This document shows positions 7,623 to 32,072 of a stretch of 32,072 bases of DNA, one piece after another. The notes beneath the pieces were generated by a model that made no database searches, was not told the origin of the DNA, and saw nothing but the letters and a program-made list of their open reading frames with translations. Numbering within the stretch: the stretch's first letter is position 1; each line of letters begins with the position of its first letter. Source of the DNA: a virus (taxonomy: Duplodnaviria > Caudoviricetes); IMG/VR virus record IMGVR_UViG_3300028571_000071, positions 1 to 32,072 of that record, one strand, 5' to 3'. The position numbers and the translations under genes were made by a program.

Positions 7623-8381
7623 TCAGGCCGCGATACCAGGATGCCAGAAGGCTTCGACTTCGATCATCGCGCCATCGGCCCGTTTCCACTTCCACCCGGC
7701 ATCGGAGATGATCGCATCGGCCGCGTGGGCTGGTGCCCCGGTCACCGAGAGGACGGAATCATTCGCCGGAAGCACCGCGTTCGGGAGCGCGAGGATTTCG
7801 AGCGAGATCTTCCGCATGTAGCCGTGGGCGACCACGGCCGTGATCTTGAGCGGATCTGCTGGCGGCTCGGTGAGCGTGAGGCTCTGCTCGATCCGAAGGC
7901 GCTGGACGGTGCCCAGGGCGGACGTAAGGCCCTGCGTGCTCCACACCAGCTTGGCGGCGGGATGAATCAGCGGCCCGGTCTGCTCGAAGGTTCCGTCGAG
8001 GGTTCCCGCCTCGGCTCCGGTGCCTGCGGCGGCATCCGGGTAGTGCGTGGCCGCTCCGGAGAACTTCTTCGGCTGGTCGATCCCCCATTCCTCGATCAGT
8101 GAGGAGCAAAGGACAATCCCGCCGACGATGGCGGCATGCGTCATTCCGATCAGTGCCCCGGCCGACAGATCCGGAAGATCAATCGTGCCATCGGTGATCG
8201 TGCCAGCGAACGAGATCGCGGCCTTTTTCCGATAGAGCGCAGAGGCGGCGTTGTCGCCGTTGCCATCCGGTTCATGGTGGACCTGGGACGACAGCTTGTA
8301 GTCGCAGGATTCGAGGATGCAGGTGGCGGGCTGTGGCGCTGAAGCGCTGCCCCAGATGAGTGATGCTCCGTAGAGTTGCAT
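7623..8381 (-). CDS. Putative major tail (tube) protein, two internally similar halves
   Basis: Synteny; beta-rich, Gly/Ala/Thr-rich; no sheath gene seen. Confidence 0.6.
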   Translation of the reverse strand: MQLYGASLIWGSASAPQPATCILESCDYKLSSQVHHEPDGNGDNAASALYRKKAAISFAGTITDGTIDLPDLSAGALIGMTHAAIVGGIVLCSSLIEEWGIDQPKKFSGAATHYPDAAAGTGAEAGTLDGTFEQTGPLIHPAAKLVWSTQGLTSALGTVQRLRIEQSLTLTEPPADPLKITAVVAHGYMRKISLEILALPNAVLPANDSVLSVTGAPAHAADAIISDAGWKWKRADGAMIEVEAFWHPGIAA

Positions 8382-8405
8382 GGTATGGTTTTTTGGTTAC
8401 TTGGA

Positions 8406-8834
8406 TTATTGGTAGGCCGCGTGAAAGATCAGATCGATCACCACGGCCGATGGGTCTTCGACTTCCTCCACCGGAGGGTTTGCCAGGCGAAGATTGTCAG
8501 CGAGGAGATTGCCGGGATTCGATCCGTGAAGAGCGAGCCGGGCCTGCGCTGCCAACTCGGGACTGTCCATCCCGGTTTCGTTCATCGTCGGGTCCACGAT
8601 GATCCGAACGCGCAGCTCACCGCGCTTGACGAAAATGAAATCGGCCCCCTCCTGGACTTCCACCGGCTTCACTGGCATGACAAACATGCAGGCCCCGAGT
8701 TTCGCCAGGCTGGCTTCGATATCGTTCTCGATGCTCTTTTCCTTCCGCTCGATGAACTCAACACCGGCCGGAATGCCCTCGGCCCGCCTGAGCAGATCAA
8801 GCACCGCGACGGGAATTTCTGTGGTCGATGTCAT
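8406..8834 (-). CDS. Tail completion/terminator-like protein, copy 2
   Basis: Directly upstream of the tail tube gene; clear paralog of 11924..12352. Confidence 0.6.
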   Translation of the reverse strand: MTSTTEIPVAVLDLLRRAEGIPAGVEFIERKEKSIENDIEASLAKLGACMFVMPVKPVEVQEGADFIFVKRGELRVRIIVDPTMNETGMDSPELAAQARLALHGSNPGNLLADNLRLANPPVEEVEDPSAVVIDLIFHAAYQ

Positions 8835-9196
8835 TCGAGGAAAGTGGCTGAGGTGACTGGCAGGCTCCGGTTGGTTGCCGTGATCCAGGCGCGCGCGATG
8901 CTGGCGGGATCATCCCACCAGGCACGGACGCGGATGCTTTTCCAGTTGGCATCCCAGACCCACAGACGGTTGTCGCCCGATGGGTAGAGATAAAGCGCGA
9001 CGGCATGATTCCAAGCTGGCGTGGAGATCAGGAGGGCACGCGATTCGATCCCGGCCCCGCGCAATCCCTCGACCATCGCCGCCGCCTCGGCCACGCATGC
9101 ATTCCGAAGCTGCCCGGAAAACGCGGGTGCAGCGACCGGAGGCCGCGCGGCGCAGGCCGATAGGCAAAGGCAGACGATGGCGAGGAGGCGGATCAT
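8831..9196 (-). CDS. Predicted lipoprotein with transglutaminase/papain-like Cys-His-Asp motifs
   Basis: Start MIRLLAIVCLCLSAC (lipobox LSAC); NACV...HAVALY...WVWD. Confidence 0.6.
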   Translation of the reverse strand: MIRLLAIVCLCLSACAARPPVAAPAFSGQLRNACVAEAAAMVEGLRGAGIESRALLISTPAWNHAVALYLYPSGDNRLWVWDANWKSIRVRAWWDDPASIARAWITATNRSLPVTSATFLE

Positions 9197-22503: not shown

Positions 22504-22856
22504 TTGTCAGGTTTTCTTTTCCCCCGCTTGCCTTTCGGCTTCTCCACAGGCTTCTGCACGTGGGCACCAGAAGCTGATGACAAATTTTCAATGTGCCCAA
22601 TCGCCACTTTGTTCCCCGTCTGGTTGATCGTCACCTTTTTCGGACGACCTCCTTTTCCTGCGCGTGACGGCGCGGCTTTCAAGCTGGCAGAAACACGGAT
22701 ATTCATTTCCTCAAGTCGCTTGTAAACGGCGTCACGGATAAATGTAGAGCGATCCGAAAAGCCGAGCTTTGGAAAAGCTGCATCAATTTCATCGCGAAAC
22801 TTTTCATCCATCATCACTAAAACTCCGCGCTGGTCGATTGATCTGACGTTCGGCAT
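22500..22856 (-). CDS. Ribbon-helix-helix regulator, probable repressor
   Basis: GVLVMMDEKFRDEID...SDRSTFIRDAV CopG/NikR-like pattern; divergent from the early operon. Confidence 0.75.
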   Translation of the reverse strand: MPNVRSIDQRGVLVMMDEKFRDEIDAAFPKLGFSDRSTFIRDAVYKRLEEMNIRVSASLKAAPSRAGKGGRPKKVTINQTGNKVAIGHIENLSSASGAHVQKPVEKPKGKRGKRKPDK

Positions 22857-22934
22857 GGGTGCATATAAAATCTTTTTTCATTTTCCCGCAATTTTTTTCT
22901 TGCGTGGTGTATATGCTGGGCATATAGCGAGTTT
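22857..22934. promoter_or_regulatory. Back-to-back promoters and operator repeats of the lysis/lysogeny switch
   Basis: Rightward TTGCGT-17-TATAGC (22900-22928); leftward TTGCGG-18-TATATG (22891-22862); three GKGYATAT repeats. Confidence 0.6.
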
Positions 22935-23749: not shown

Positions 23750-24546
23750 AGACCCTCCAGCCCACCTCCACCGGGAATATTTCGGCAATGACCATCCCCC
23801 AGCTCGCCGAGGCGGGCAAGGCCCTCGACCGCGCGGGCGACCTCCATGAGAACACAGCAGGCATCTGCCGCCTCCTTCACGGTCTCGTGCTCATCGAGGC
23901 CAAGCGCAAACTGGAGCACGGAGCCTTCATGCCTTGGGTGAAGGAACATTTCCCGAACTCGTATCGGGCAGCAGCACAGCGCATGCAGGCTGGCAATGAT
24001 TTTCTTGCCACCGTCAGCGACAAGAAACTGGCCAAGAAGCTCAAATGTGCAGGCCCCTGCACATTTGACGCCCAGAGCCTGCTCCTCGGGGATCTTGCAA
24101 CCAACCTGCCCGAGATCAGCGGTGCCCAGCTCGACATGAGCAACCCGGTCGTGGAGGCCGCGAGCAAATACATCGGCAACCGCTCCTGGACCCAGCTCCT
24201 GCTCGACCTCGGCGACGCCCGCGAAAACAACGGAGGCAAGCGAACGCGGCTCAACGGAACGAAGCGGCGCACCGACCCGGAAAAGGAATTCGACGACGCG
24301 CTCAAAAAGGCGATGGACTGGTATAAGCTCGGCCTCGTCAGCCTCAAGGAAAACTACCTCCACAGCAAACGCCGCTGGGAAGTGCTCCCCGAGGTGGAAC
24401 TCGCCAACGTCGCCGACCTCGTCAAGCTCTGGGCCAAAAAACTCGACGACATCTGCCGCGCCCGGCACATCGTCCCCAGCAAGATCCGCGATTGGGACAA
24501 AAACTTGTCGCCCGCAGAACTCGGCCTCTCGGAGGACGGGAAATGA
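23746..24546 (+). CDS. DUF3102-like protein
   Basis: GLVLIEAKRKLEHGAFMPWVKEHF..SYRAAAQRMQ; typical just upstream of Mu-like transposases. Confidence 0.75.
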   Translation: MKTLQPTSTGNISAMTIPQLAEAGKALDRAGDLHENTAGICRLLHGLVLIEAKRKLEHGAFMPWVKEHFPNSYRAAAQRMQAGNDFLATVSDKKLAKKLKCAGPCTFDAQSLLLGDLATNLPEISGAQLDMSNPVVEAASKYIGNRSWTQLLLDLGDARENNGGKRTRLNGTKRRTDPEKEFDDALKKAMDWYKLGLVSLKENYLHSKRRWEVLPEVELANVADLVKLWAKKLDDICRARHIVPSKIRDWDKNLSPAELGLSEDGK

Positions 24547-26396
24547 CACTCGACGCCTACCAGCGCGAGAGGATCGGAACGCTGCGCCCGATCATGGAGG
24601 CACTCGAAGCCGCCGACCACCTGACCAGCGGACTCGCCGCCTTCTCAGCCCGCATCGGCTTTTCCAAGCAACGGCTGGAAATGCTCTTCTACTCCTGGCA
24701 GCGCGCGGGCGACGACGCACTCATCGACAAGCGCAAGCTCCCGAAGCCAAAGAAGAGCGCGGCAGATACCCTCCCCATCAGCGACGCCGAGCGCGCAGTC
24801 CTGCGCCGCCTCGTCGCGCAATGCGGCTCCATGCTCTACGGCATCGAAGCCTTCGCCGATGATCCCGTCTGCTCGCCCGAGATCCGCACCCTCATCATTT
24901 CGCGCCGCTCGCGCCGCAACTATCCCAAGGCCCTGCTGCGCGCCGCCCGTGTCACCGGCGAAGAGAGCGACCTCGCCCGGGGGCCGAAGCGGTTCAACCT
25001 GCACGTCGCCACGCAATACCGCGACAATGTCTGGGTGGACTCAGCCGGGGTCGAGCATCCGCTCACTGGCGGCGACCTCTTCGAGTGCGACGACATGAGC
25101 CTCAACCAGCCCTTCTGGTATGAGTGGCCCTACGGCGGGGACGAACTCTCCGACATGTTCGGCGTCCGCCTCGGCCGCCAGATGCTCGCCTGCATCGACA
25201 CCGCCACCGCCCGCTGGATCGGCTTCGATCTCATCGGTCGGGTCCGCGACGCCTACCGCGCCGAAGACATCGTCCGTTTCCTCGGCTCCATCTGCCAGTT
25301 CAACGGCATCCCGCGCCACGGGTTCCGCCTGGAGCGCGGCATCTGGAAATCCAAGGCCGTGCGCGGAGTCAAGGGCGTGAACGACGACAAGGAAAAGCAG
25401 GTCGTCGCCTCGATCTCCGACGCTGTCGCCCTCCACTACGTCCACAGCCCAAAAGCCAAAGGCGTCATCGAAGGCAGCTTCGACATGCTCCAGACCATCC
25501 TCTCCCTCGACGGCATCACCATCGGGCGCGAACGCGGAGAATACGAGAAGGCCACCGCCGCCATGCTCAAATGCACAGCCGGCCGCATGCATCCGAAAAA
25601 CGCTGGCTTCCCGCACATCAGCGATATCGCCGAGCGCGTCAACGGTGCGATGGAGAAGTTCAACCTCCGCAATAAAATGGGCCGCGTCATCCAGGGCGTG
25701 CCCATGGAAAACTTCGCTCGCGACATCGAGGCCCAGCCGCTCGCCGCGCTGCCCGACCAGCAGGCTTACCTCTTCCAGCCCTACCGCGAGATCCGGCCCA
25801 TCACCGGCGCCCACGTCCGCTGCAAGGTCGAGCACTACAACCATACCTTCTCCTTCGCCGTTCCCGGTGAACTTGCCCACCTCGGGCGCGGCTACCGGCT
25901 CCTCGTCTGCTTCGATCCCGCCAACCCGCATGCCGGAGCCCGCGTCTTCGACGCCGAGAGCAGCGACAGCAACCGCCTCGACTACGAGAGCAAGCACGGC
26001 CAGAGCTACGGCATCATCCCCTTCGAGCCCGACGCGCCCCAGCTCGACTACTCGGACCGCGCCAAGAACCGCACCAAAGGCGGATACGCCGGAGCCGTCC
26101 GCTCCGAGTTCCGCAACCTCGGTCTCCAGCAGGGCACGAACATTTCCCGAGTCAGCGACGGGCGCGGCAACTCCACCCAGATCGCACGCGGCGCACAGAT
26201 CGCCGCTATGGAAAATCTCCCAGCCGGTGACCCGCGCGCTGCAGAGGCCCTGCAGGCCCGCCGCACGTTCGTGGAATCCGGCGACCGCGCCACGGCCCGC
26301 AAGCTCCGCAAGGTCTCCAGCGCGGCCCTCCTGGACGACGACGAAAACGAGATGCCTGGCGCGCCTTCGCGCATCAGCTCCGAAGCCCTCCTTTAG
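24543..26396 (+). CDS. MuA-like DDE transposase (617 aa)
   Basis: FECDD, CIDTAT, GIP..FRLERG, PKAKGVIEGSF, VCFDP; followed by a MuB-like ATPase. Confidence 0.88.
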   Translation: MTLDAYQRERIGTLRPIMEALEAADHLTSGLAAFSARIGFSKQRLEMLFYSWQRAGDDALIDKRKLPKPKKSAADTLPISDAERAVLRRLVAQCGSMLYGIEAFADDPVCSPEIRTLIISRRSRRNYPKALLRAARVTGEESDLARGPKRFNLHVATQYRDNVWVDSAGVEHPLTGGDLFECDDMSLNQPFWYEWPYGGDELSDMFGVRLGRQMLACIDTATARWIGFDLIGRVRDAYRAEDIVRFLGSICQFNGIPRHGFRLERGIWKSKAVRGVKGVNDDKEKQVVASISDAVALHYVHSPKAKGVIEGSFDMLQTILSLDGITIGRERGEYEKATAAMLKCTAGRMHPKNAGFPHISDIAERVNGAMEKFNLRNKMGRVIQGVPMENFARDIEAQPLAALPDQQAYLFQPYREIRPITGAHVRCKVEHYNHTFSFAVPGELAHLGRGYRLLVCFDPANPHAGARVFDAESSDSNRLDYESKHGQSYGIIPFEPDAPQLDYSDRAKNRTKGGYAGAVRSEFRNLGLQQGTNISRVSDGRGNSTQIARGAQIAAMENLPAGDPRAAEALQARRTFVESGDRATARKLRKVSSAALLDDDENEMPGAPSRISSEALL

Positions 26397-26411
26397 CACC
26401 ACCACCACTTT

Positions 26412-27581
26412 ATGAACAAAGACACCACCACGTCACCCGAACCCGAAGACAACAATCAACCCGAGCCGCAGGCCAATTCTGGCAACAACGTGCGCGCGTC
26501 CTGGAACTTCTCGCTCCACGACATCCGCATGAATCTCGCGCATTGCTCACACGACGCGAAGGAGATCCTGATCGCCTGTTTCCTGTGGTGCATCGACGCG
26601 AAGCACCCGGTCAGCCGTCCGGAGTTCGCGAAGGCCATCGACTTCGACCCGTCCACGATCTACCGGATCTACTCGGGCAAATACATCAACGCCACGACAC
26701 GCGAGCGCCTGGAAGTCCCGCCGAAAATGGTGGATGCGTCGCGCGCCTGGCTGGCCCGGCAGCGCAAAGCCTACACGCCCATCGGAGAGTTCATCCTCAC
26801 ACCGACCGCCGAGCGGATCTTCCACGCCTGCAACCTGGCACGGGAATCCAAGACGCCGGTCTTCCTTTGGGGCCGCTCGCACATCGGGAAGACCTGGGCG
26901 CTCGAAAAATTCGCCGCCGATAACAACCACGGCCGCACGATCTACGTCCGCATGAAAGCGGCCACCGGCCTGGGCGGGATGGTGAAGCGGATCAACGAGC
27001 GCTGCGGAAATTCCGACAAGGCGAACACGGCGGATTCGATTGACCGCATCAAGCGCGCCCTCTCGCCCGACACGCTGCTGATCCTGGACGAGCTGCACCT
27101 CCTCCAATACACCTACCGGCTCAATTCCTTCTTCGCCTGTCTGGAAGTGATCCGGGAGATTTACGACGAGGTCGGCTGCGGGATGCTGCTCTGCGGCACG
27201 GAACTCCTCCTGGAGAAAATGCGCGGCGGCACCCACGGCGAGATGGAGCAGCTCCTGCGGCGCGGGGTCCATAAGTTCCACCTGCCGAAGATGCCGAGCA
27301 AGGACGACATCACCGCGATCCTCGGCCACTACGGGGTCGAGTTTCCGGCGAAGAAGAAAACCCTCAGCCTGATCGTGGACGGCGAGCACATCAACGAGAT
27401 CCCGTTCGACCTGCTGCGCCAGCTGGCCAAGGACAACGGCATCAAGGCGATCACCGAGCGCCTGCGCTATGCGGAGAAGATCGCCGCCAAGGCCCGCACG
27501 TTCACGACGATGGCCCACTTCGTGGAAGCCCACGTCCGCATCCAGTCCAACGGCGCAGTCGACAACTCGGATTGGGATTGA
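26412..27581 (+). CDS. MuB-like AAA+ transposition ATPase
   Basis: N-terminal HTH (STIYRIYSGKY), Walker A GRSHIGKT, Walker B LLILDE, LLCG. Confidence 0.92.
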   Translation: MNKDTTTSPEPEDNNQPEPQANSGNNVRASWNFSLHDIRMNLAHCSHDAKEILIACFLWCIDAKHPVSRPEFAKAIDFDPSTIYRIYSGKYINATTRERLEVPPKMVDASRAWLARQRKAYTPIGEFILTPTAERIFHACNLARESKTPVFLWGRSHIGKTWALEKFAADNNHGRTIYVRMKAATGLGGMVKRINERCGNSDKANTADSIDRIKRALSPDTLLILDELHLLQYTYRLNSFFACLEVIREIYDEVGCGMLLCGTELLLEKMRGGTHGEMEQLLRRGVHKFHLPKMPSKDDITAILGHYGVEFPAKKKTLSLIVDGEHINEIPFDLLRQLAKDNGIKAITERLRYAEKIAAKARTFTTMAHFVEAHVRIQSNGAVDNSDWD

Positions 27582-27682: not shown

Positions 27683-28011
27683 TCGCGCTCCACATAGAAT
27701 CCCAGGACATCACCGACGCGATCTGCACCGTGTCACTCATGGGGCCGCACGTCGAATCCGCCGCCGAGGCGGCATTCATCCAGTGGCTGCGCGAACGCGG
27801 CTACAACTGCGACAAAGCCGAGGATTGGGAAACGCCCCGCGAGCTTTGCGAACGGCTGCACATCGGCTGTTCCTTCGTCTCCCAGGCACTCCGCCGCCCA
27901 AACTGCCCGAAGCCGCTCGACATCTCGCGCGGCCCCACCGGCCGCATCACCTACCTCCGCAGCACACCGGCCCTAGACGCCTTCCTCACAAAACATAAGT
28001 CCCATTCCTAA
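27679..28011 (+). CDS. Hypothetical protein with C-terminal HTH-like motif
   Basis: RBS GGAGGGG before ATG; TPRELCERLHIG.SFVSQAL. Confidence 0.65.
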   Translation: MIALHIESQDITDAICTVSLMGPHVESAAEAAFIQWLRERGYNCDKAEDWETPRELCERLHIGCSFVSQALRRPNCPKPLDISRGPTGRITYLRSTPALDAFLTKHKSHS

Positions 28012-28027
28012 TTCCAAATTCCAAATT

Positions 28028-28984: not shown

Positions 28985-29103
28985 CCCTCCGCGCCCTCAA
29001 CTGTCTCCTGCTGCTCATCGCCCTGCGCGAGGGGCAGCGGGGACGTTGCTGGAGGCCACGTCATTCCTAATTCCACATTCCACATTTCGCATTTTTCCAC
29101 CCC

Positions 29104-29841: not shown

Positions 29842-30195
29842 ATGGATGCCGCCGCGCTCGCAACACAGATGGACCTATGGCTCCGCACCCAGCCGCGCTG
29901 GGTCAGCGGTGCGGAGATCTGTGAGCGCTTTGGCGTCAACGAGCGCCGCCTGCGCTCAGCTAACGGCAAGCCCGGCCTCCTGTCCTTAAACTGTGTGAGC
30001 AGCTCCACCCAGGGGTTCAAGCACATCCGGTTCGCAGCCACGCAGGAATTTTTCGAGTGCGACAAAGAAGACCGTAAACACTGCATCTCCCGATACCTCA
30101 CCCTGCGAGCACGCCGCAATGCCTGGCGGAACGAGCGCACCGGCAAGCGCCCCGAGTTCCGCGAACTCCACACCGGCCAACTGGTTTTCGTATGA
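29842..30195 (+). CDS. Winged-HTH protein, candidate transcription regulator
   Basis: WVSGAEICERFGVNERRLR...SSSTQGF. Confidence 0.65.
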   Translation: MDAAALATQMDLWLRTQPRWVSGAEICERFGVNERRLRSANGKPGLLSLNCVSSSTQGFKHIRFAATQEFFECDKEDRKHCISRYLTLRARRNAWRNERTGKRPEFRELHTGQLVFV

Positions 30196-30383
30196 ATCGC
30201 AAACCCTCCCGCGAATGGACCCGCCGACTCTGTCCCTCCTGCGCCCACCGCGTGATACAGACCGAGTTCGGCTGGTTCTGCCGATCCGTCCTATGCAGGA
30301 GATCATGGTTCTCGAAGAAAAAACCGCCGAACGCTGCCGGTCAGAAATCGCTGGCTTTCGCGGAACCTCCGTTTGAAAGCTGA
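30192..30383 (+). CDS. Small Cys-rich (zinc-ribbon-like) protein ending inside attC-like site 1
   Basis: CPSC...WFC..LC; ATGA-coupled. Confidence 0.55.
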   Translation: MNRKPSREWTRRLCPSCAHRVIQTEFGWFCRSVLCRRSWFSKKKPPNAAGQKSLAFAEPPFES

Positions 30384-30446
30384 TATGACGCAACCATCCA
30401 TCTCAACACCCACTGGCCAGCGATTTCCTGGACCGGCTTGTTGGGC
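30326..30446 (-). mobile_element. attC-like recombination site 1 (121 bp)
   Basis: Minus strand: R'' GCCCAAC-AAGCC-L'' GGTCCAGG-AAATCGCTGGC...GCCAGCGATT-TCTGACC-GGCAGC-R' GTTCGGC; two extrahelical bases. Confidence 0.85.
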
Positions 30447-30485
30447 AGGCCGGAAAAGAGCGTCGAAAAAAGATGAAAATAGTTC

Positions 30486-30514
30486 TTGCAATCAAGACAA
30501 GGTTTGAATAAAGT
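30486..30514 (+). promoter_or_regulatory. Sigma70-like promoter inside cassette A
   Basis: TTGCAA-17-TAAAGT with an A-rich upstream tract, 9 nt before ATG 30524. Confidence 0.65.
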
Positions 30515-30523
30515 AAGGGCGTC

Positions 30524-30805
30524 ATGAAAAACAACACCAACACACGCTCAGAAAAATACGCAGCCCACAAATCCGCCGCCGCTTTCCTGCTGGCTCAACC
30601 CGCTACCACCTCACGGAAAAAAGCGATCCTCCTCGTGACAAACGCAGAGGGTCGGCTCATGGCCGACATCGAAAACGGTCGCCAGTGGGGTGGCCGCCGT
30701 GGAGTCAAGCAGAACGGCGGAAAAGCCATCGCCAAGACCGAAGAGACGGTCGCCGCGATGAAAACCCTCAACCTCAACGCCGCCGCGTGGTTCTCCCAGG
30801 CATGA
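30524..30805 (+). CDS. Hypothetical protein (93 aa), cassette A gene 1
   Basis: Follows its own promoter; ATGA-coupled to the next gene. Confidence 0.7.
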   Translation: MKNNTNTRSEKYAAHKSAAAFLLAQPATTSRKKAILLVTNAEGRLMADIENGRQWGGRRGVKQNGGKAIAKTEETVAAMKTLNLNAAAWFSQA

Positions 30806-31050
30806 ACTACCGGGATGCTTACGACCGCGCCGACTGGACGAAAACGGATGTCCAGTTGGCGCGAAAATTCGGAGTCACCAAGCAGGCAATCCAAGCTGCG
30901 CGTAGGGTCAGGGGCATCGCCCCGACTCCGCACGGAGGATTAAGGAAAGGCGCTGGCAGAAAGCCATCCAAAAAGCGCCGTAAAAAGAAATGCGCACCAC
31001 GGCGGCCCAACGGCGCGGATGAGAGGCAGCTACCGGAGGAAAAACTATGA
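30802..31050 (+). CDS. HTH protein with GGLRKGAGRKP basic motif, cassette A gene 2
   Basis: TDVQLARKFGVTKQAIQAARR; stop lies in the loop of site 2. Confidence 0.7.
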   Translation: MNYRDAYDRADWTKTDVQLARKFGVTKQAIQAARRVRGIAPTPHGGLRKGAGRKPSKKRRKKKCAPRRPNGADERQLPEEKL

Positions 31051-31125
31051 TCGAAAAACGGTATGAAAGCGGGCGAGGACCGAAAGAGAACAGCGGTAGC
31101 TGTTCTCTCGATCCGATGGTTCGGC
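31005..31125 (-). mobile_element. attC-like recombination site 2 (121 bp)
   Basis: Minus strand: R'' GCCGAAC-CATCG-GAT(C)GAGAG(A)ACAGCTACCG...CGGTAGCTGCCTCTCATCCG-CGCC-R' GTTGGGC. Confidence 0.85.
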
Positions 31126-31388
31126 AATCTTCGCGGCAACTCTCTGTGCGGGTAGTCCCTGCGCTGTTCCGCGCCGTCAATCGCCTGTGCGAGCGTGACG
31201 GAATCACCCTCACGGCATTCGTGACGGCCTGCGTGTGGTTCGAGGTGCGCCGCCGCGCCCCGGCCTGCCACGACTGCCAACCCGGAGCGGCAACCCCGGC
31301 ACTCAACCAGCATGGCGACTGTGCGACGTGCGACGGTCTGGGTGTTGTTTTGCCGAACGCTGGGCTATGCGACCGGGACCGCTCATAA
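31047..31388 (+). CDS. RHH-like domain plus CxxC...CxxC zinc finger, cassette B gene
   Basis: QLSVRV.PALFRAVNRLCERDGITLTAFV; CHDC, CATCDG; starts in site 2, stops in site 3. Confidence 0.65.
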   Translation: MIEKRYESGRGPKENSGSCSLDPMVRQSSRQLSVRVVPALFRAVNRLCERDGITLTAFVTACVWFEVRRRAPACHDCQPGAATPALNQHGDCATCDGLGVVLPNAGLCDRDRS

Positions 31389-31451
31389 TAGACTCCGCCA
31401 TGCAAAACAACCTTCCCAGCGGTCCCGGTTCGCATCAGCCACTTGTTGGCC
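31352..31451 (-). mobile_element. attC-like recombination site 3 (100 bp)
   Basis: Minus strand: R'' GGCCAAC-AAGTG-GCT(G)ATGCGA(A)CCGGGACCGCT...AGCGGTCCCGGTCGCATAGCC-CAGC-R' GTTCGGC. Confidence 0.85.
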
Positions 31452-32072
31452 CTCTTCCGGTTCCATACTACGACGACGGTCTCATCACGATCTTCTGTGG
31501 GGACTCCCGCCGTATCGTGCCAACGCTGCCGAAGTTCGACCTGCTGCTCACCGACCCACCGTATGGCATCAACATCGCCAAGACGGGCAAGTTAGGCAAG
31601 GCGCGGTATGAACCCGCCGAATGGGACGCGAAGCAGCCGGAGCCGTGGGAACTGCAAATGCTCATCTCAAGCTGCAAGGAATCCATCATCTGGGGCGGCA
31701 ATTACTACGAGCAACTCCGCCGTGCCACATGCTGGCTGGTGTGGGACAAGAAAAACGACGGCCTATCCTTCGCCGATGCAGAACTCGCCTGGACAAACCT
31801 GCGCCGCGCCGTGCGCATGTTCCGGTGGATGTGGCATGGCTTAAAGGAAGGTGGCCCCATCAAACGCGTCCACCCCACGCAAAAGCCGGTGCAACTGATG
31901 GAGTGGTGCATCGGCAAGGCCAACAAGCCGCAAAGTCTCCTCGACCCCTACATGGGCAGCGGATCGTCACTGATCGCCTGCCAGCAACTCGGCATCCGCG
32001 CCGTGGGCATCGACATGCACGAGCCCTACTGCGCTGCCGCCGTCGAACGGCTCCGCGATAATCGGGCCAACG
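31400..32072 (+). CDS. Orphan N6-A/N4-C DNA methyltransferase (beta class), cassette C gene, stop beyond the window
   Basis: Hand-translated: LLTDPPYG, WDK, HPTQKPV.LM, LDPYMGSGSS; missing from the ORF track because it has no stop. Confidence 0.92.
   Translation, partial: MQNNLPSGPGSHQPLVGPLPVPYYDDGLITIFCGDSRRIVPTLPKFDLLLTDPPYGINIAKTGKLGKARYEPAEWDAKQPEPWELQMLISSCKESIIWGGNYYEQLRRATCWLVWDKKNDGLSFADAELAWTNLRRAVRMFRWMWHGLKEGGPIKRVHPTQKPVQLMEWCIGKANKPQSLLDPYMGSGSSLIACQQLGIRAVGIDMHEPYCAAAVERLRDNRAN
32064..32072 (-). mobile_element. Core (R') of a probable fourth attC-like site, truncated by the window end
   Basis: GGGCCAAC is the exact reverse complement of GTTGGCCC at 31445-31452; AAC is in frame with the MTase. 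Confidence 0.6.

Follow-up and report, generated by a model that had tools for sequence, protein, structure and literature searches.

Cassette genes on the attC bottom strand in a probable complete integron of a Mu-like phage

Integrons are seen as devices of bacteria in which gene orientation is strict, and those of phages as fragments captured from the host. In the canonical layout, cassette genes are carried by the attC sites' top strand and are read away from the attI site from the cassette promoter (Pc). The accessible text of Cury et al. 2016 (PMC4889954) and of PMC13323075 knows only regular and inverted-integrase layouts, and that of PMC5737381 and PMC8352920 yielded nothing further on known layouts. 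No cassettes oriented towards the promoter have ever been seen (Nivina et al. 2016). As far as the accessible text of Qi et al. 2023 (PMC9892861) goes, phages carry integrons as well as clusters of attC sites lacking integrases (CALINs), in which cassettes for DNA methyltransferases are frequent, recombination of phage attC sites by IntI1 was demonstrated, and those integrons that are complete were taken over as pieces from class 1 or host integrons; neither inverted genes nor a phage-specific integrase clade is reported there. Here we analyse the IMG/VR virus record IMGVR_UViG_3300028571_000071, taken in its entirety (32,072 nucleotides, the window below), which ends inside the fourth hairpin of an attC array. 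This array very probably belongs to a complete integron that closes the early region of a Mu-like phage and whose cassette genes all lie on the bottom strand of attC, opposite to those of bacterial integrons; the cassettes are likely moved by the phage integrase and expressed from the early transcript. Phage integrons and the cross-matching of attC cores are already known; of a phage integron with reversed cassette genes we found no description in the literature covered, subscription journals and bioRxiv supplements lying largely outside that coverage.

A two-bulge hairpin scan treating both strands alike found only three sites above the score threshold of 22 in the 32-kb window (30326-30446, 31005-31125 and 31352-31451, hairpins 1 to 3), while four shuffles gave 0 per 32 kb. 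Together with hairpin 4, completed outside the window, they display the R box (AAC/GTT), unpaired spacer and extrahelical bases of attC sites, on a fixed stem with two bulges and compensatory changes (observed on preselected sites). In all four, two unpaired bases are found on the 3' arm of the + strand. Known attC sites carry their extrahelical bases on the bottom strand, opposite the AAC that is cleaved as AA|C (PMC5027507, PMC2811028, as far as their accessible text goes). The + strand is therefore the bottom strand, and not the top strand as the original prediction had it. This assignment was calibrated on class 1 sites: in a related phage hairpin, the strand that carries the gene corresponds to the class 1 attC strand lying opposite aadA16. 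A model derived from 44 phage hairpins also picks up three class 1 attC sites in locus L410, again on the strand opposite the cassette gene. The sites stand in a regular relation to intI and attI, with intI on the attC bottom strand. The genes, not the attC sites, are reversed: they lie on the bottom strand and face attI and intI. A phage hairpin (L116 7746-7836) has arms about 87% identical to class 1 attC sites (fosE, aadA16) and a longer loop.

The locus shares with known integrons (class 1 mobile ones and sedentary chromosomal ones such as that of Vibrio cholerae VchIntIA) an IntI integrase with its specific insertion, AAC/GTT cores, two extrahelical bases, cores that match across each cassette, the polarity of attC relative to intI and attI, and the position of the intI 5' end beside attI. 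It differs from them in that the phage genes are carried by the bottom strand, face attI and intI and begin within the attC of their own cassette, the stop frequently falling in the following attC, so that top-strand genes read away from attI from a Pc are not what is seen. In inverted-integrase integrons, for example in Treponema, intI and the cassette genes also share a strand, but intI is flipped with respect to attC, lying on its top strand, and precedes the array (PMC4889954, accessible text); here intI, on the bottom strand, keeps the regular relation and comes after the array, and it is the genes that are turned round within their cassettes. The present case also differs from that considered by Nivina et al., since attC polarity is normal and the gene alone is reversed.

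The array continues the early region of a transposable phage. Tail, capsid, portal, terminase and endolysin genes occupy the minus strand, whereas the plus strand carries a Mu-type DDE transposase and a MuB-like ATPase (24492-27581; phrog_310, phrog_296, AAA_22), then small genes running into the array; this combination with head and tail genes identifies a Mu-like phage. The viral sequence L003/L096 is 100% identical to the window over 15,661 bases and extends 2,780 bases further (L003 coordinates are window coordinates minus 16411), and the three viral contigs of this phage agree in all overlaps, with no rearrangement seen. Past the window, L003 contains hairpin 4, cassette 4 (a promoter-like site, an open reading frame (ORF) without family and an XRE-type helix-turn-helix (HTH) gene), a lone AAC without hairpin and, 36 bases on, the integrase gene (L003 16431-17408, + strand, 325 amino acids), about 770 bases beyond the window end. 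The number of hairpins equals that of cassettes. The integrase scores 276 bits against TIGR02249 (cut-off 265) and its best PDB match is VchIntIA (2A3V, E 3e-50), with an alignment spanning the IntI-specific insertion. Its frame is intact and R132, K157, H257, R260, H283 and Y292 are invariant across 52 relatives. At the array end, adjoining the intI 5' end, a motif AACAG is invariant in 21 of 21 hand-picked aligned loci, and the site qualifies as attI-like only by its position and its conservation. In 24 of the 25 loci examined, an AAC that no hairpin follows closes the last cassette, at a distance of 33-178 bases from the integrase match; no such AAC was found in the remaining one, L117. Integrase, attI-like site and attC cassettes together point to a complete integron and not to an integrase-less cluster, and a CALIN was rejected on the presence of the integrase gene in L003. 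DNA searches with the attI-like motif returned 7 and 71 stretches, six of the 7 being contigs already in our set. Among GenBank phages the integrase had no close relative (best identity 39%). In a quick tree it fell in a clade of 17 members, all with inverted arrays (Shimodaira-Hasegawa-like approximate likelihood ratio support of 100); other inverted arrays were placed outside, implying three label changes.

Gene orientation was then compared across relatives of the integrase drawn from viral, genome and metagenome collections. We hand-listed 100 cassettes in 27 mostly viral loci from model matches, leaving out L092, L105, L107, L126, L129, L146 and the second L124 cluster, which are not upstream of the integrase or have another polarity. 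The longest ORF was on the bottom strand in 83 of the 100 cassettes, across the 27 loci. Sixty-three of these 83 ORFs have their start within the hairpin of their own cassette, with every frame represented (23/23/17), and for 62 the stop lies at the next AAC or beyond it. Cores cross-matched over at least 7 bases in 85 of the 97 cassettes with intact cores (63/73 for non-terminal cassettes alone), compared to 5/97 for matches within a hairpin. Without the phage studied here, the counts were 81/93 for cross-matching and 79/96 for bottom-strand ORFs. An unselected scan of 296 loci (L309-L331 were not covered; one duplicate was removed) was split by collection: bottom-strand genes were found in 36/51 viral, 11/50 cellular and 2/12 metagenomic intervals, and cross-matching in 38/51, 35/50 and 11/12, respectively. 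As a further control, 40 regions were taken from genomes of the phylum holding L176, a candidate host phylum. Ten gave intervals, of which 5/38 were bottom-strand and 31/38 cross-matched; the DNA of one of these ten regions is that of viral contig L113. The cellular and host-phylum controls thus indicate that cross-matching is generic and that inversion is a phage trait; inversion as a trait of the host lineage was rejected on the 5/38.

MuA or MuB homologues were found near six other inverted loci. Close relatives (L002, L088, L091) carry other cassettes at the same place, and arrays are wholly different between phages whose integrases are 84-86% identical. In L086, a related Mu-like phage, the same flanking genes enclose two small genes (8340-9120) with neither an integrase nor a model site, and this interval is possibly a decayed array. 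The gene preceding the array is 85% identical between L117 (7074-7854) and L094 (6822-7596), while their integrases are distant (38% and 84% identical to the query). Hairpins resembling attC and having the same polarity also occur downstream of the integrase or far from it (L124 13823-15117, L092 8913-9795, L107 7035-7143).

The unit of movement was revealed by locus L118, where a stretch of 236 bases recurs without any difference in cassettes 12 and 14; it begins with the upstream hairpin's AAC and ends at the next AAC, and one of the copies abuts the attI-like site. An AAC-to-AAC duplication and a last cassette devoid of a following hairpin imply that crossover takes place at AA|C on left arms and that the hairpin travels with the downstream gene. 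A 100% identical duplicate at attI indicates recent activity in the L118 phage. This duplication, with the differing arrays of close relatives, shows cassettes moving as units, indirectly as regards the phage of the window.

The cores were the subject of the original prediction, and all six were found where it had placed them (30440-32071 region); the left core of hairpin 1, GCCGAAC, lies at 30326-30332. Counted outwards from the AAC/GTT triplet, complementarity across cassettes 1, 2 and 3 extends over 7, 9 and 8 bases, compared to 3, 3 and 3 within hairpins 1 to 3. Non-cognate site pairs match over at least 7 bases in 3.7%, at least 8 in 1.1% and at least 9 in 0.5% of cases, so that the joint chance of the three cross-matches of the window is about 2e-6 if they are independent. 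In silico circularisation restored a perfect core pair in cassettes 1-3, and the predicted folding energy of the + strand site was 6-7 kcal/mol lower (AAC/GTT pair enforced). In cassette 4 the cross-match is of 7 bases, its within-hairpin match likewise, and circularisation brought no predicted folding-energy gain. The prediction was thus right in seeing attC sites of integrated cassettes whose core pair is regained on circularisation, and in setting aside terminators and repetitive extragenic palindromic (REP) elements: AAC/GTT is invariant, an IntI gene is adjacent, a duplication runs AAC to AAC, and cross-matching far exceeds the null and is reproduced in the other phage, cellular and host-phylum arrays counted above. 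It erred on polarity, as seen above, and on the crossover arm, placed at G|TT of the right arms (30440, 31119, 31445), whereas the L118 duplication runs between left-arm AACs. Cross-matching is predicted by either polarity and therefore cannot discriminate between them; it is an ordinary integron footprint, common in chromosomal integrons and nothing new of itself. A search for cassette 3 in a second context found no copy, and 79 of 79 other methyltransferase loci of viral contigs had no attC-like site by the model, that family being mostly found outside such cassettes.

Several observations weigh against this picture of reversed genes travelling with the hairpin upstream of them. The site-finding model was trained on 44 of the listed loci's own sites, gene direction was set by the longest-ORF rule and 17 of the 100 cassettes read the opposite way, and the terminal AAC was the best match picked within 400 bases, although the picks converge on a conserved motif. 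Phage arrays in L146/L129, Rctr41k and TJE1 are canonical, the TJE1 array being one of those of Qi et al. (PMC9892861, accessible text) that we checked. L116 (3546-3639 and 4868-4961) and L128 (5820-5927 and 7428-7535) each have near-identical hairpins before different genes, with a likeness that stops just past the right-arm GTT. Conversely, L109 and L116 have a gene in common (61% amino-acid identity) as well as 11-base cores, although their hairpins are dissimilar. Joint travel of hairpin and gene is thus not a strict rule, and exchange at the other arm on occasion, or reuse of hairpins in cassette making, may explain it. Most homologous cassette pairs are too distant (22-61% identity) to give a usable signal of hairpin co-inheritance. 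Finally, the case is built on sequence, and the candidate early promoter (22843-22871) is no better than chance. In Virus Rctr41k (L481, KX853513; 4680-10588) an IntI-like gene, annotated only as xerD, is followed by five attC sites with canonical genes; judged by this arrangement, it is an inverted-integrase integron in a deposited phage.

Could the polarity be canonical after all, with the + strand as top strand, G|TT of the right arm as the crossover point, each hairpin belonging to the preceding gene and the integrase downstream? Cross-matching fits this equally well, certain attC sites can use either strand for recombination (PMC5027507, accessible text), and the near-identical hairpins of L116 and L128, whose likeness ends past the right-arm GTT, fit exchange at that arm. 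The extrahelical bases would however be on the wrong arm, the last cassette is followed by a conserved attI-like motif and no hairpin, and the L118 duplication, bounded by left-arm AACs, contradicts the right arm as main route. Gene starts would also part from their genes, yet starts occur in all three frames. We consider this reading very improbable, although right-arm exchange may happen as an occasional side reaction. Even less credible, to the point of being nearly negligible, is the proposal that the hairpins act in RNA as regulatory elements (translation switches, attenuators or terminators) or are REP-like repeats, the core matches being due to chance. The loops do carry ribosome-binding sites and start codons, which makes an added effect on translation plausible, and Rfam gives no match. 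Against it stand the invariant AAC/GTT and the two-bulge stem with its compensatory changes on preselected sites, the extent of cross-matching over the null, the adjacent IntI and the exact AAC-to-AAC duplication; the hairpins were absent from the list of a terminator scan, and a primary role of this kind is already contradicted.

Alternatively, the array could be a fossil or passive cargo, its cassettes having been placed by a host integrase while the phage enzyme is inactive or irrelevant. IntI1 does recombine phage attC sites (PMC9892861, accessible text), IntI-like genes are present in 110 of 401 genomes of the candidate host phylum, and the contigs of this phage, identical in their overlaps, display no rearrangement. 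On the other hand, the integrase has kept its frame and catalytic residues and belongs to a clade with many intact relatives, and the attI-like site next to it is conserved; phages with closely similar integrases have entirely different arrays, and a fully identical duplicate sits at attI in L118. We consider passive carriage very improbable.

We favour an integron worked by the phage itself. By analogy with IntI biochemistry, the phage integrase would bind the folded + strand and cut at left-arm AA|C, and likely excises and inserts cassettes. The excised circle would consist of the hairpin and the downstream gene, with the perfect core pair regained, and its insertion at attI beside the integrase would leave one half-core of the circle at either cassette end, thereby giving the cross-match. 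As genes point towards attI, a Pc-like role for the attI end is not expected. Expression would instead depend on read-through out of the early genes, which point the same way; the hairpin loop would supply the start signals and the next hairpin often the stops. In the cassettes with a putative promoter of their own (1 and 4), genes start outside the hairpin. The cassette acquired last would lie farthest from the promoter. The DNA methyltransferase of cassette 3 likely protects against restriction, a role proposed for phage methyltransferase cassettes (PMC9892861, accessible text).

Within the window, hairpin 1 (30326-30446, + strand, as for all features below) presents the bottom, recombinogenic-type strand with two extrahelical bases on its 3' arm and a predicted crossover AA|C at 30331/30332; it is the outermost and likely the oldest site. 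A further GTTCGGC (30266-30272), 60 bases before it, is complementary 7/7 to its left core and lies in a 63-amino-acid ORF (30192-30383) whose stop falls in hairpin 1; it is possibly the remnant of an older cassette, or possibly due to chance. Cassette 1 (30332-31010, cores 7/7) comprises the body of hairpin 1, a promoter-like TTGCAA-17-TAAAGT (30486-30514; 8/12, spotted by eye and under the scan threshold) and two ORFs without known family: one of 93 amino acids (30524-30805), with no Pfam or PHROG family, and one of 82 amino acids (30802-31050), which reads past hairpin 2's AAC to a stop codon in the loop of that hairpin. Hairpin 2 (31005-31125) has extrahelical T and G on the 3' arm and a predicted crossover at 31010/31011, and its loop carries the GGAGG and ATG of the cassette 2 gene. 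A perfect local hairpin within it (31077-31112) is predicted to outcompete the attC fold in linear form, which may lower cassette excision. Cassette 2 (31011-31357, cores 9/9) encodes a Cys-rich protein of 113 amino acids without family (31047-31388), starting within its own hairpin and stopping within hairpin 3. The latter (31352-31451) has extrahelical T and C on the 3' arm, a predicted crossover at 31357/31358 and the methyltransferase start in its loop. Cassette 3 (31358-32070, cores 8/8) encodes an N6/N4 DNA methyltransferase (ATG at 31400, 230 amino acids, stop in hairpin 4 past the window; PF01555, E 1e-16, phrog_67). The left core of hairpin 4 (32064-32072, predicted crossover at 32070/32071) is cut by the contig end. 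Rfam gave no match, the terminator scan did not list the hairpins, and promoter and terminator scans gave counts near chance level. Proteins of cassettes 1, 2 and 4 have no known family, save one HTH. Cassettes 1 (30486-31050) and 4 (L003 15800-16383) are alike in having a promoter-like site, a small gene without family and a small basic or HTH gene, a design that would resemble a self-regulated two-gene module. Elsewhere, a 25-base AT-rich repeat (28003-28027 and 29062-29086, 92% identical) lies between early genes, and a similar motif is found near 5315 in L088.

The surrounding system matters more here than the textbook cross-matching. A phage-resident, reversed version of the integron shows that attC polarity is separable from gene polarity. 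It offers a cassette-shuffling route for phage accessory genes such as DNA methyltransferases, plausibly countering restriction. We also put forward, tentatively and as a conjecture with somewhat less than even prospects, that phage-specific IntI lineages circulate a separate, mirror-image cassette pool in which attC serves as the leader and N-terminus of the gene. If so, a host Pc would leave phage cassettes unexpressed, as would the phage those of the host, and the mirror image, together with hairpin reuse, would lay open the making of cassettes, in which an attC already present is joined through one or the other R box to a new gene. For cassette genesis the constraint is that the mechanism must be able to place attC at either end of a gene.
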